Shown in pieces: positions 12,593 to 42,107 of a DNA stretch of 57,666 nucleotides (the stretch's first letter is position 1; each line of letters starts with the position of its first letter). A model generated the notes under the pieces. It did no database searches. It saw only the letters and a program-made list of their open reading frames with translations, and had not been told where the DNA came from. This DNA comes from Prorocentrum cordatum (lineage: Eukaryota): positions 62,001 through 119,666 of the forward strand of contig CAUYUJ010000005.1 in assembly GCA_963575745.1 (NCBI GenBank), in the 5' to 3' direction. Made by a program: the position numbers and the translations under genes.

Positions 12593-12871
12593 ATGCCCGC
12601 CACGGGCGCCGGCGCGCCGTGCACCTCCTGCGGCGCCGGCGCGGCGCCGTACGCCTGCAGCCGCTGCCGCTCGGCGCGCTTCTGCTCGCCGGCCTGCCAG
12701 CGCCGCGCCTGGCCGTCGCACCGGCGCTCGTGCGCCGCGGCGACCGCCGCCGCCGCCGCCGACGGGCCGCCCGCGCGGCTGGCGCCCGCGGCGGCGGCCG
12801 CGGCCGCTGCCGGGGCGTCGCCGAGGCCTGGTCCATCCCGGCGGCTGCGGCAGGGGCGGATCGTCCACGAG
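12593..12871 (+). CDS. MYND-GT7 gene exon 1 (MYND zinc finger)
   Basis: CTSC-x8-CSRC-x5-C-x3-CQRRAWPSH-x3-C matches MYND; ATG follows a pyrimidine tract; donor GAG|GC in phase 0 (alternative donor near 12825 possible). Confidence 0.8.
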
Positions 12872-13151
12872 GCTTCGTCGCTGGTGCCGGGAGGCTTTCT
12901 CGCCTCCGGCTGCTTTCCAGCAGCTGCGCCCCGCCGAGGGCGTTCTGGGGTGGCCAGAGTCGTTGGAAGCTCGATGTCCGACGGTCTTGTTTTTTTGTTC
13001 GATCCCCGTGTCCTCCTTCGATTTCGGCCTTTGGGGCCCGTTGTCAGGCCCCGGGGCCATCAAGCATGGATCTGGGACCAGAAACTACCGCCGTTTAAGG
13101 GGTTGAGCTCTGCCCGACGCGGGGATTAAGCCATAACCACCGCCTGACGAG

Positions 13152-13277
13152 GCCCCCCGGGCGTGTAGTGCACGCCCCTGGATTGCTCGCCCCTGCGGCA
13201 GCCGCCGGCCACCGGGTGCCGGGGTCTGCGCGCGCGTGGCCCTGGTGGTGCCGTTCCGGGACCAGCGGCCCCTGCAG
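13152..13277 (+). CDS. MYND-GT7 gene exon 2
   Basis: Encodes ...ARVALVVPFRDQRPLQ (GT7 PFR motif); acceptor gag|G, donor CAG|GA. Confidence 0.8.
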
Positions 13278-13337
13278 GACTTGGGGATCCGCCGTCAGAG
13301 TTCAAGGGAGGAGAGTCCACCCCGACCCCCGCAATTG

Positions 13338-13544
13338 TCGCAGGCCTAGAGGTTGACACCAACACCAATTTCGGCGGTCTGCCTCCACCGAGGGAAGAAG
13401 ATCCCGATCTCGGTGATGGTGGTAACACTCTGGCTTCCAAGGTGGCCGAAGTATTACCACCGACAGCCGAAATCTGGGATCCTCTTCCCCCCTGTGGAGG
13501 CAGCCCCCTGTGCTGGTGTTGGTGCCCACTTCCAGGCCTCCACA
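13338..13544. mobile_element. MITE family B copy 1
   Basis: Imperfect TIR aggcctagaggttgacaccaacacca / tggtgttggtgcccacttccaggcct; aattg on both flanks; homologous to 55326-55529. Confidence 0.8.
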
Positions 13545-13582
13545 AAATTGGCGTTTGCTGCACAGCCTCGGGCGTGTACTGA

Positions 13583-13745
13583 TCAGGAGGGAAAGAAACA
13601 CACAGACACAATTAATCGTCGATTCCCCAGGAAATATGGTAAAATATGGGAAGTGGGGGGGAAGACAGAAACCCAGAAAATATGGGAAAATATGGGGGAT
13701 CTTTTTATTTGTGTGAATTTATTTGTGTGTCCCGGGGCCCCTTCA
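13583..13745. mobile_element. MITE family C copy 1 (16-bp flanking duplication)
   Basis: tcaggaggg...ggccccttca flanked by ctcgggcgtgtactga at 13567-13582 and 13746-13761. Confidence 0.85.
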
Positions 13746-13850
13746 CTCGGGCGTGTACTGAACTCGGCGACCACCTGCGCTTCCTTGCCCCTGCGCCCTG
13801 CGGGTTCAGTCCGCGCCGGAGCGTCGGCCGCCCCCGCCGGGAGCCACGTG

Positions 13851-14012
13851 TTAGGAGGGAAAAAAACACACAGACACAATTAATCGTCGATCCCCAGGAA
13901 ATATGGGAATATATGGGAAGTGGGGGGGAAGACAAAAACCGAGAAAGTATGAGAAAATATGGGGGATCCTTTTATTTGTGTGTATTTATTTGTGTGTCCC
14001 GGGGCCCCTTCA
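13851..14012. mobile_element. MITE family C copy 2
   Basis: 5-bp TSD acgtg (13846-13850, 14013-14017). Confidence 0.85.
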
Positions 14013-14492
14013 ACGTGGCTGCAGGCATCCTTGAAGTCTGAACCCCGCCCGGTTTCCATACGTGGCTCGGGGGTCGCTCAAGGGGCCCCTGGGCCAAGGT
14101 GCCCCCGGCTTTTCGCTTGATGCTGCAGCCCCTGGGGCCCTCTGGGCCTCGTGAGGGGCGCTCTGGAGGCCGGGGGGGCCTCCTGGGAAATCCTGGGGGT
14201 GCCCTGGGCTTGGGGGCGCTTCTAGCAACACCCGAACGCGGTTGCCTGGGAGCGGCCCCGTCCATTTCGATTGTTTCCGTAGGTACTTCTTCTCAAGGGC
14301 TTCGCTTGCGGGGCTTTTGCTCAGTCCCTCTGCTCTCCTGTGCAAGAGAGGGGATTCCATCCCCCATCCCCCAGCTGGCGTTTGCCAGCAAACTGCCCTG
14401 GCTGGGCGTTAACTACACAGCCCTGCCTTCTTCGATCCCTGCCTGGGGGGCGTTTTGTAAAACCGGCTTTGCGTGTCGGGGGGTCTCCATGA

Positions 14493-14687
14493 TCGGGCCG
14501 GGCGAAAGGGGGGGATTGGGAAAGGGGGGGTTACGAAGTTTGCTGCATGCAGCCGGCTTCGGCCCCACCGAGGGGCCCATTCCTCGATGCATGGACGCCT
14601 CCGGCGCCGGGAGGCGCCCGGAAAATCACCCGCGTGAGCTGATTCTCAACCCCCCCCTTTGCTATCCCCCCCTTTCGCCCCACCCGA
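14493..14687. mobile_element. MITE family K copy 1
   Basis: TIR tcgggccgggcgaaagggg...cccctttcgccccacccga; homologous to 41527-41719, including the downstream flank. Confidence 0.8.
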
Positions 14688-39619: not shown

Positions 39620-40385
39620 GAGAACATGCTGATTATGGTGGTGATGACCACGATGATGCAGATGTTGATGATGGTGGTGATGATGGTGATGGTGATGATG
39701 CTGATTATGATGGTACTGCTGATGATGAAGATGATGATGCTGATGATGATGCTGATGATGCTGATGAGGATTGCGATGATGACGGCGATGAAGATGATGA
39801 GGATGATGATGATGATGATGATGATGATGATGATGATGAGGAGTATGATGATGATGCTGATGATGATCATGATGATGGTGCTGATGATGATGATGGTGAT
39901 GATGATGCTGATGATGATGCTGATGATGATGTTGATGATGATGATGATGATGATGATGATGATGATGATGATGATGATGATGATGATGATGATGATGATG
40001 ATGATGATGATGATGATGATGATGATGATGATGATGATGATGATGATGATGATGATGATGATGATGATGATGATGATGATGATGATGATGATGATGATGA
40101 TGATGATGATGATGATGATGATGATGATGATGTGATGACGAGGATGACGATGACGACGATGGTGATGACGACAACGACGACGATGACGACGACGACGAGG
40201 AGGTGGAGGAGGAGGAGTAGGAGGAGTAGGAGGGGGAAGAGGAGGAGGAGGAGGAGGAGGAGGAGGAGGAGGAGGAGGAGGAGGAGGAGGAGGAGGAGGA
40301 GGAGGACAGGAGGAGGAGGGGGAGGAGGAGGAGGAGGAGGAGGAGGAGGGAGGAGGAGGAGGAGGAGGAGGAGGAGGTGGAGGAT
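39620..40385 (+). repeat. (GAT)n then (GAG)n array
   Basis: Direct inspection. Confidence 0.97.
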
Positions 40386-40403
40386 CCCCCCGCTGACTCT
40401 CAG

Positions 40404-40688
40404 GACATGCGCCCCGCGTATGCCAAGCCTCCACCCCCGGGGACCGCAGTGCACCTGGCGTCCGTCTGGCCCAAGTACACTTACCCAGGCTTTCTTGGCG
40501 GCGTGCTGTCCTTTCGGCCAGAGGACTTCGAGCGGGCCAATGGTTACCCCAATAATTACTGGGGCTGGGGTTTGGAGGACGACCAGCTCGCTCTGCGCAT
40601 GTCGAAGTGTAACATTCGAACGATCCGGCTGCGCGAAGGGATTGGCACCTTCATTGACTTAGACGAGATGAACATGAAGGGCGTTCTG
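40404..40688 (+). CDS. MYND-GT7 gene exon 6 (catalytic WGWGxEDD)
   Basis: VHLASVWPKYTYPGFLGGV...NGYPNNYWGWGLEDD; acceptor ctctcag|G; donor CTG|GA in phase 0. Confidence 0.93.
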
Positions 40689-41052
40689 GATCCGGGGAGC
40701 CGCAGAATGGGGTAAGTGTGGAGGAGGTGGGGAGGGGATAATGAGTGGGCGATGGTTCGGCGGAGCGCTTGTATCGGCTACACGTAAGAGTGACCTTTCC
40801 GCCGGAGTGACTTTTGGTGCGCGGCTTTCGGGGGGACGCGGGGGGCGGGGGGGAAACCAGAGCACGCAGGCCGCTACGGTCGTACCGCACGCGACGATTG
40901 GCAGGTCGCGCACCACAGGCCAGTCTTGCCTGGGGCGACGTCTTGCGTGCAGCCGAGATGGGAGGGGAGGATGAGTGGGCCATGATTCGGCGGAGCGCTT
41001 GCTGGGGCGGGGGGGGCGGGGAGGGCAACTCTCACGGCTCGACTCTCCCCAG

Positions 41053-41178
41053 GACCGCGGGCAGGGGGAAGAGGTGCGGCGGCACTTGCCCTGGTACAAC
41101 GCGCAGCTCTTCCAAAAGGGCGCACTCTTGATCGACGGGGACTGGCAGGTCAACGGGCTCGGCGACCTTGACTACGAG
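41053..41178 (+). CDS. MYND-GT7 gene exon 7
   Basis: DRGQGEEVRRHLPWYNAQ...VNGLGDLDYE matches the GT7 DGLxxLxY motif; acceptor ctccccag|G, donor GAG|GT. Confidence 0.85.
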
Positions 41179-41318
41179 GTCTCGGGCGAGGGAGCTTTGG
41201 CCAGAGCCCTGAAGACTTCAGAGGCCCGACCCATCGGCCCTGTCAGTGGATGTCGATCCCCTGCCAGACCGGGGGGCCGTGTTCTGCAAGGTTGGGGCCA
41301 CTCATATGTCGACTAGAC

Positions 41319-41468
41319 GTAAGAGTGACCTTTCGCTGGAGTGACCTTTGGTGCGGGCACAGATACATCCCCAGATGGCTGAAAACGAAGCAGCAGCAGC
41401 TGCTTGCGCGCCCAGGTCTGACCCCCCCCGCGGCCCCCCAAAAGTCGCGCAGCAAAGGTCACTCTTAC
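41319..41468. repeat. Inverted-repeat-bounded segment
   Basis: Perfect 15-bp IR gtaagagtgaccttt / aaaggtcactcttac; the left arm recurs at ~40784. Confidence 0.65.
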
Positions 41469-41526
41469 CCAGGGCCACTCTGGCGTATAGCCGAATTTGC
41501 CTCTGGAGGCTCGGTGGGGCTGGCTG

Positions 41527-41719
41527 TCGGGCCGGGCGAAAGGGGGTATTGGGAAAGGGGGGGTTACGAAATTTGCAGCATGCAGCTGGTTTCGGCCTCA
41601 CCGAGGGGCCCATTCCTCGATACATAGCCGCCTCCGGCGCCGAGAGGCGCCGGGAAAATCAGCCACGTGAGCTGATTCTCACCCCCCCCTTTGCTATCCC
41701 CCCCTTTTGCCCGACCCGA
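41527..41719. mobile_element. MITE family K copy 2
   Basis: TIRs plus 5-bp TSD ggctg (41522-41526, 41720-41724). Confidence 0.85.
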
Positions 41720-41960
41720 GGCTGGTCTGTTTCCCTCTCCCCGTAGGTCGTGGATAAGAGGAGGAGGAGGAGGAGGAGGAGGAGGAGGAGGAGGAGGAGG
41801 AGGAGGAGGAGGTGGAGGGGAGGAGGAGGAGAGGAGGAGGAGGAGGAGGAGGAGAGGAGGAGGAGGAGGAGGAGGAGGAGGAGGAGGAGGAGGAGGAAGT
41901 GTGAGCGTCTGCCCTGCCCTCTCCTGAGCGTTTGTCCTGTCCTTCGTCCTCTCCCCGCAG

Positions 41961-42107
41961 GTCGTGGATAAGAGGGGCAGCGGCCTGGTGCGCCACGCCG
42001 TAGTGCACCTGCGCAGCGGCCGCACGCCGGCGCTGTCGCCCGATGCGTCGGCACCCGCCGGCGCCTCGCCGGCGGGAAAAGCGGCAGCCGAGGGGGAGCA
42101 GGAGTGG
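41961..42107 (+). CDS. MYND-GT7 gene exon 8 (3' end unresolved)
   Basis: VVDKRGSGLVRHAVVHL completes the GT7 C-terminal strand; acceptor ctctccccgcag|G; no stop before the microsatellite. Confidence 0.65.

Follow-up and report, generated by a model that had tools for sequence, protein, structure and literature searches.

A 57.7-kb stretch of the Prorocentrum cordatum genome (GenBank assembly GCA_963575745.1, contig CAUYUJ010000005.1, positions 62,001–119,666; hereafter the window, with a GC content of 0.48–0.70 per 2 kb) holds a gene of eight exons and seven introns, whose product fuses a MYND finger to a GT7 β-1,4-galactosyltransferase-like domain. Two of the introns, intron 1 and intron 4, are well supported as small non-autonomous DNA transposons (introner elements), because each carries a 5-bp target-site duplication (TSD) flush against terminal inverted repeats (TIRs) of 21–22 nt. 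Intron 4 appears to trace, base by base, the path from a 5-bp-duplication element to a GT..AG intron, and intron 1, an element of the same kind, is gone from the mRNA without conventional splice sites, which is possibly the new point of this analysis. Overall, the gene is likely to be made of dinoflagellate-type introns, of which introns 1 and 4 are small non-autonomous DNA transposons and the rest possible old insertions.

Transposon ends at introns 1 and 4

RNA contigs from four runs of four studies (X1, X3, X8 and X12) were compared with positions 12100–14600 of the window; as assembled contigs, they tell the presence of a sequence, not its absence or abundance. A 1,059-nt contig of X12 joins 12832 directly to 13209, skipping 376 nt with CC..GG ends and three ambiguous letters, and the shorter side of this join is 72 letters long. 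In addition, a contig of X3 breaks exactly at 13209 with 14 unplaced letters, a contig of X1 starts at 13212, and the bins spanning 12856–13191 have zero cover in all four runs. An initial annotation, made from the sequence letters, had placed intron 1 at 12872–13151 with GC..AG ends; the RNA join refutes that placement, as does the missing cover where its exon parts should lie, and the 7-nt repeat it relied on, ACGAGGC, lies inside the real element. Mapping the transcripts onto the proposed junctions of this region moved intron 1 to 12833–13208 and confirmed the junction of intron 2, where the 30 letters by which an X1 contig extends past 13280 equal positions 28232–28261, their sole match in the window.

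The 376 nt missing from the RNA equal CCATC plus a 371-bp element (12838–13208), that is, the element and one copy of its duplication (Table 1). The two copies, CCATC and CCACC, match at four of five positions and lie flush against the inverted repeats. The 21-nt inverted repeat has two matches in the window, where 0.01 are expected, and stands out from random site pairs of the same region (p ~0.0003 ungapped, 0.0015 gapped). Furthermore, the computed RNA fold pairs both ends of the intron, even flanking exon bases (z −3.97; 0 of 100 shuffles as good). The layout of intron 1 is that of an element resembling a miniature inverted-repeat transposable element (MITE) with a 5-bp TSD, and the RNA lacks the element together with one copy. 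Four cuts are compatible with the RNA (CC..GG, CA..GC, AT..CC and TC..CA), none of them GT/GC/GA..AG, and the 240 coding nucleotides of exon 1 put intron 1 in phase 0 at the leftmost cut. A window-wide scan for elements combining a 5-bp duplication with inverted repeats found only intron 1, with intron 4 just below the scan threshold.

Intron 4 equals a 198-bp element (33035–33232) plus one copy of GGTGG. The two copies of this duplication (33030–33034 and 33233–33237) are identical (5/5) and lie flush against inverted repeats (33035–33056 and 33211–33232) that match at 19 of 22 positions (p 0.001–0.0025) and had escaped the initial annotation; the terminal stem is present in both the minimum-free-energy and the centroid folds. 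Specifically, the element would have landed in GGTGG, with the left copy of the duplication providing the donor G/GT (the slash marks the cut) and with the acceptor AG made up of the last A of the element and the first G of the right copy. Judging from homologous proteins, removal of the 198 + 5 nt would restore the coding sequence, and the element would thereby have become an intron through its own duplication.

Compared by eye, the outer 11 bases of the intron 1 and intron 4 inverted repeats agree at 8 positions. A scan of metagenome contigs with the 21-nt intron 1 repeat gave 48 loci, of which none extends beyond 55 nt; these were set aside as chance matches in GC-rich DNA.

Absence of the intron 1 element from the mRNA

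The intron 1 element would have landed in CCAYC, a site offering no splice signals. Its absence from the mRNA could reflect non-canonical excision guided by the hairpin, or transcription from an element-free copy of the gene. Excision guided by hairpins and repeats has a parallel in the nonconventional introns of Euglena.

With an element-free copy, nothing would be removed from RNA: the contigs would derive from an allele, strain or paralogue that never held the 371-bp element (an 'empty site'), and the copy in the window would be a recently disrupted gene. We regard this as a serious possibility, nearly an even call. An empty site and the exact loss of the element with one duplication copy lead to identical RNA, and X12, the source of the sole explicit join, deviates from the window at 2 of the 241 exon 1 bases and carries an organism code unlike that of X3 and X8. 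In addition, joints that go back within exon 1 in three runs (see below) suggest related transcripts from other loci, and gene duplication is extensive in P. cordatum (PMC10666404). On the other side stand three points, and we give RNA-level excision, too, a chance of at best about one half. First, an X3 contig has its break precisely at 13209 as well, and X3 shares its organism code with X8, whose exon 1 contig equals the window at 150 of 150 bases. Second, the duplication (4/5) and the inverted repeat (20/21) have both diverged, so that the insertion is not brand new, while the exons of the window stay intact and match the RNA. Third, without removal the frame would stop inside the intron 1 element, and exon 2 would give the catalytic domain no start codon.

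Building on RNA-level excision, we tentatively propose that P. cordatum, a core photosynthetic dinoflagellate, removes the TIR/TSD transposon of intron 1 from a coding exon without GT/GC/GA..AG ends, and that the cut is directed by the terminal hairpin and a 3–5-nt direct repeat, in the way suggested for Amoebophrya; a further case might be intron 3. Non-canonical introner removal would then not be confined to the parasitic Syndiniales, and dinoflagellate annotations limited to GH..AG introns (GT, GC or GA donors) would miss an intron class and truncate gene models, as with P0002, the deposited protein of this gene.

The introner elements of Amoebophrya have inverted repeats of 8–20 nt, direct repeats of 3–5 nt and non-canonical ends (Farhat et al. 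2021, PMC7789003). Intron 1 resembles them in its 21-nt inverted repeat, in the direct repeat over its borders (CCA exactly, or CCAYC), in its non-GT-AG ends and in a hairpin that joins the exon ends. It differs in its host, a core photosynthetic dinoflagellate with otherwise GT/GC/GA..AG introns, in being one case, or perhaps two with intron 3, and in that its RNA-level excision is putative. In the accessible part of a 2024 review, 'other boundaries' are given only for Amoebophrya, and the name 'Prorocentrum' is absent from the main text of a 2025 Introner survey. Our literature search, of incomplete coverage, found no report of introner removal at non-GH..AG sites in a core dinoflagellate. 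For the P. cordatum genome, the aligners accepted only GT, GC or GA donors (Dougan et al. 2023, PMC10666404), and therefore an intron like intron 1 could not be annotated there.

Border repeats of the other introns

At both introns covered by RNA, a repeat at the two borders is present once in the mRNA (CCA at intron 1, CAGGAC at intron 2), and the same holds by homology for introns 4 to 7. Introns 2 and 4–7 all lie between codons, in phase 0, and each of the six introns 2–7 separates a codon ending in G from a codon starting with G. The donors, lengths and phase of introns 2 and 4–7 are as the initial annotation had described them (GA, GT, GA, GA and GT; 203 to 14,951 nt), and so are their border repeats; of the TSD signature that it had seen in six of the seven introns, the part that fell is intron 1, which had been misplaced. 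The gene would be built in the usual dinoflagellate way, with GT/GC/GA donors, AG/G acceptors and first intron bases that recur at the start of the next exon.

True donor/acceptor pairs were compared with all cross-pairs of the six GH..AG introns, a design that separates history from consensus. At positions +2 to +4, 12 of 18 bases match against a cross-pair rate of 0.33 (binomial P 0.004; 18 of 720 permutations reach this value). The excess persists over +2 to +5 (13/24 against 0.33; P 0.023; 46/720) and at +3 and +4 (7/12 against 0.32; P 0.05; 54/720), and there is none at −3 to −1 (11/18 against 0.54; P 0.37; 240/720). Within a single gene, the excess of border repeats is modest but real.

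Only introns 1 and 4 have inverted repeats clearly above chance; introns 2, 5, 6 and 7 have a border repeat of 3–6 nt and no defined element ends. The inverted repeats that the initial annotation had listed, tcgtc..gacga for intron 1, tgg..cca for intron 2 and cggggag..ctcccca for intron 6, are at chance level (p 0.47, 0.19 and 0.19, respectively). The border repeats of introns 2, 5, 6 and 7 would fit old insertions of the same kind as introns 1 and 4, which is not proof; they may be old duplications, which here are indistinguishable from splice-site constraint.

Such constraint (…G/GH at the donor, AG/GH at the acceptor) together with chance would explain the border repeats of introns 2, 5, 6 and 7 with no transposon scars at all, an explanation to which we assign a real but lesser probability, about one in three. 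It agrees with the absence of inverted repeats above chance in these four introns and with the −3 to −1 positions, where true pairs match no better than cross-pairs, and the published GH exon motif (Roy et al.) covers the match at +2 (5 of 6). Against it, the matches reach +3 and +4, where no consensus is described, the 5-nt layout G/GHNN is the same as that of the proven duplication in intron 4, and Roy et al. link the GH exon motif itself to Introner insertion (10.1101/2020.10.14.339549).

A wider reading, in which nearly all seven introns may be Introner insertions in an age series and bloat later by nested insertion, had been put forward in the initial annotation, and its general idea is already contained in the 2020 preprint of Roy et al. 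On this reading the young introns would be short with inverted repeats and the old ones long and without them. The two introns with clear inverted repeats (203 and 376 nt) are among the three shortest, the long introns hold nested repeats and microsatellites, and GA donors, which the literature gives as typical of young introns, make up three of six. Yet GA donors occur on the longest intron (intron 2) as well as on short ones, so that donor type does not track length; three of six against the published 23.8% gives P ~0.15 by our own arithmetic; and intron 6 is short but has no inverted repeat. We consider the age series unlikely. What stands of a transposon-derived intron set is intron 1, defined by RNA, and intron 4, both by TSD and TIR; for introns 2, 5, 6 and 7 there is the border repeat.

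Several points weigh against our overall reading of dinoflagellate-type introns with two transposons and possible old insertions. The intron 1 join is given by a single contig, in whose run exon 1 deviates from the window by the two bases mentioned above, and the junctions of introns 4–7 rest on homology and one annotated protein. The fold energy of intron 4 is not unusual (z −0.92), and neither the intron 1 nor the intron 4 element has a second copy in the 57.7-kb window, so that their mobility as a family is putative. The inverted repeats of introns 2, 5, 6 and 7 are at chance (p 0.19–0.48), and intron 6 forms no terminal stem (fold z +1.0). Furthermore, the border excess is moderate (the 18/720 and 46/720 above), and the GH consensus known for both sites accounts for part of it.

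Relation to known dinoflagellate introns

The phenomenon as such is already published, as repeated boundaries (2015), as Introners with GHNN duplications in Symbiodinium and Polarella (2020/2023) and as P. cordatum introner elements (2023). Our analysis finds again these known traits, namely repeated borders, GA and GC donors, transposon-derived introns and long P. cordatum introns, and adds one well-dissected gene.

Identical repeated intron boundaries (IRIBs) of 2–9 bp were described in dinoflagellates by Mendez et al. 2015 (PMC5032977). The present borders share with them a GG-containing repeat of 2–9 bp that is present once in the cDNA, by RNA for intron 2 and by homology for introns 4–7. 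IRIBs are described as identity between the 3′ ends of exon and intron, whereas the repeat here lies mostly 3′ of the cut, with the intron start equal to the start of the next exon.

In Symbiodinium and Polarella, DNA transposons are known to have given rise to introns (Roy et al., bioRxiv 10.1101/2020.10.14.339549); there, the inverted repeats reach as far as the 3′ site, and a flanking GHNN duplication provides the 5′ site. The same source reports that an exonic GH after the acceptor is conserved, that GA is enriched among young introns and that the target site determines a bias towards phase 0. The gene studied here is similar to the Introner-like elements of Symbiodinium and Polarella glacialis in that the duplication provides a splice site, the intron start GHNN equals the start of the next exon, the donors are GT, GC or GA, and phase 0 is favoured; a class with 5-nt duplications exists there as well. 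Viewed by the features of Roy et al., a TSD directly flanks the element and one copy is removed in both intron 4 (5/5) and intron 1 (4/5), with a removed length of element + 5, and GH..AG ends with a site taken from the duplication would apply to intron 4, whose junction is by homology, but not to intron 1. Several differences remain. The duplication is 5 nt long here and starts one base 5′ of the cut (GGHNN); none of the five confirmed GH..AG introns has the perfect tetramer with CT at +5/+6 that is the hallmark in Symbiodinium, intron 5 coming nearest with a perfect tetramer followed by CG; intron 1 uses no GH..AG sites; and near-identical copies of introns 1 and 4 are absent elsewhere in the window.

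In P. cordatum, Dougan et al. 2023 (PMC10666404) report GT, GC and GA donors at 24.7%, 51.4% and 23.8%, respectively, AGG acceptors at 79.7% and introns of 4,709 bp on average; introner elements occur in 2.4% of them. That study is on the same species and uses the same definition, inverted repeats of 8–20 nt together with direct repeats of 3–5 nt that lie no more than 30 nt from an intron end, and it likewise describes introns of great length and the donors GC and GA.

Gene model and protein

Exons were placed using the sequence, homologues and spliced models that were aligned to seven homologues (Table 1). In this alignment the junctions of introns 2, 4, 5, 6 and 7 are gap-free against all seven homologues; these five proposed junctions stand, that of intron 2 also by RNA, and the deposited P. 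cordatum protein P0002 ('unnamed protein product') independently uses the junctions of introns 5 and 6. The exon 6–7 stretch is partly present in 20 runs, none of which has more than 0.44 of its words, and therefore no run contains the intron as DNA. Protein searches with exons 5 and 6 brought up just the truncated P0002 for P. cordatum, and no protein derived from transcripts of this species that could settle intron 1 or intron 3.

Table 1. Exons, introns and transposon ends of the gene, in window coordinates
Feature	Position	Strand	Description	Basis
Exon 1	12592..12832	+	mRNA start 12592, ATG 12593; 240 coding nt; includes MYND zinc finger	RNA contigs X8 and X12 start at 12592
Intron 1	12833..13208	+	376 nt, CC..GG; cut movable by up to 3 nt (CCA)	RNA
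Intron 1, left TSD copy CCATC	12833..12837	+	5 bp; right copy CCACC at 13209–13213	
Intron 1, left TIR	12838..12858	+	21 nt	
Intron 1, right TIR	13188..13208	−	20/21 complementary; ends exactly at last removed base	
Exon 2	13209..13277	+	69 nt; starts with right duplication copy CCACC	RNA contigs X1, X3 and X12 cover 13209/13212–13280
Intron 2	13278..28228	+	14,951 nt, GA..AG; border repeat CAGGAC	RNA overhang and homologues
Exon 3	28229..28267	+	39 nt, DRRAQLQRFVPHM	5′ end confirmed by RNA
Intron 3	28268..32988	+	candidate borders, four options	
Exon 4	32989..33030	+	42 nt; 45 nt if start is 32986	homologue alignment
Intron 4	33031..33233	+	203 nt, GT..AG; border repeat GGTGGT	homologues
Exon 5	33234..33368	+	135 nt	homologue alignment
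Intron 5	33369..40403	+	7,035 nt, GA..AG; border repeat GGACA	P0002 and homologues
Exon 6	40404..40688	+	285 nt	100% identity to P0002
Intron 6	40689..41052	+	364 nt, GA..AG; border GGA (GGATC/GGACC, 4/5)	P0002 and homologues
Exon 7	41053..41178	+	126 nt	homologue alignment
Intron 7	41179..41960	+	782 nt, GT..AG; border repeat AGGTC	seven homologues, gap-free
Exon 8	41961..42977	+	frame open to stop 42975–42977 through in-frame (GAT)n and (GAG)n; putative mRNA 3′ end	

The domains and the full-length collinearity with relatives place the predicted product in the GT7 β-1,4-galactosyltransferase family with an N-terminal MYND finger. Specifically, zf-MYND is found in exon 1 (Pfam, E 4.2e-11), and Glyco_transf_7N and Glyco_transf_7C are found by Pfam in P0002, with which exon 6 is identical in protein sequence. 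The relatives are dinoflagellate proteins with Glyco_transf_7N/7C, and the N-terminal MYND finger is also present in P0014 and P0021.

At either end, the public model of the gene is cut short. The first residue of P0002 is a methionine within intron 4 (33082–33233), so that exons 1–4 and the MYND finger are missing, and the model passes through the intron 7 donor to a stop (41179–41318). The truncation may have arisen because a pipeline limited to GH..AG introns would reject the transcript alignment.

The position of intron 3, which the initial annotation had called uncertain, indeed has four candidate junctions. A GC..AG intron ending at 32988 leaves a one-residue gap against all seven homologues, and an end at 32985, with the border repeat TGG, is gap-free against all seven but has no AG. 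The other two options are GT..AG at 28276–32969, which adds 8 residues, and GA..AG at 28317–32988, which adds 16. The border repeat is GG or TGG, depending on the junction, and a subterminal gapped inverted repeat joins 28274–28308 and 32944–32976 (p ~0.01). With no AG at the junction that preserves the length of the homologues, intron 3 is possibly non-canonical as well.

At the 5′ end, the genomic part of the X8 and X12 contigs starts at the base just before the ATG, preceded by 29–33 non-genomic letters, and position 12592 is probably a spliced-leader trans-splice site. Inside exon 1, contigs of three runs contain a joint that goes back from 12764 to 12624 with six extra letters, and one run skips 123 nt from 12655 to 12779 in the Ala-rich linker; these joints suggest length variants or paralogous transcripts of exon 1. 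At the 3′ end, the exon 8 frame continues through (GAT)n for 290 nt and through (GAG)n for 575 nt (42108–42977), which would add ~290 residues, chiefly D, R and E, up to the stop at 42975, as a putative tail of the mRNA. A perfect GGTAAGT lies at 40713–40719, 24 nt 3′ of the intron 6 GA donor, and is unused according to the seven homologues and P0002.

Content of the long introns and flanking elements

The long introns grew mostly by microsatellite arrays and nested MITE-like repeats. Intron 5 holds more than 3.3 kb of trinucleotide arrays (33449–35508, 36170–36742, 39626–40168 and 40197–40384), together with inverted arrays of 48–49-nt units (37959–38163 and 39136–39388) that flank ~1 kb of GGGACA-rich tandem repeats in a foldback-like arrangement. 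Intron 2 contains a 661-nt (GAT)n array, a MITE-like copy at 14493–14767 and an endonuclease-like open reading frame (ORF) at 23389–24684. In intron 7, two nested MITE-like inverted-repeat elements (41309–41494 and 41527–41719) are accompanied by a (GAG)n array, and one of the two elements has 91% identity over 284 nt to a copy in intron 2.

Around the intron 7 acceptor, a 33-nt direct duplication (91%; 41734–41766 and 41948–41980) takes in the acceptor itself together with the initial 20 nt of exon 8. A second, identical-looking acceptor therefore lies at 41746, just 5′ of a (GAG)n array. Behind exon 8, at 42827–43026, the 3′ part of intron 7 (41758–41953) recurs with 94.5% identity.

The initial annotation had filled the long introns with long interspersed nuclear elements (LINEs), MITEs and microsatellites; the microsatellites and MITE-like repeats are there, and the LINEs are not borne out, since none of 30 intronic ORFs matches reverse transcriptase (RT) or endonuclease families in Pfam. 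When the window's two LINE ORFs served as tblastn queries, the gene yielded a single match, of 47 aa, in intron 2. The ORF at 23389–24684 has no endonuclease match by phmmer against PDB sequences; its resemblance to Exo_endo_phos clusters in Atlas (0.95, 152 shared features) is no more than a lead.

At the start of intron 2 (13337–14012), many RNA contigs from elsewhere align, with a depth of up to 1,147 and sharp loose ends at 13338, 13583 and 14012, indicating transcribed repeat families with defined ends.

Outside the gene, a LINE ORF lies downstream at 47461–51000 (+), with RVT_1 (E 3e-23) and Exo_endo_phos. Upstream, an uninterrupted ORF of 1,961 codons (6306–12188, +) ends ~400 nt 5′ of the mRNA start; it has no RT match in Pfam, and with endonuclease/RT-like motifs seen by eye and weak matches to C2H2 fingers, it is possibly an intact dinoflagellate-specific LINE-like element.

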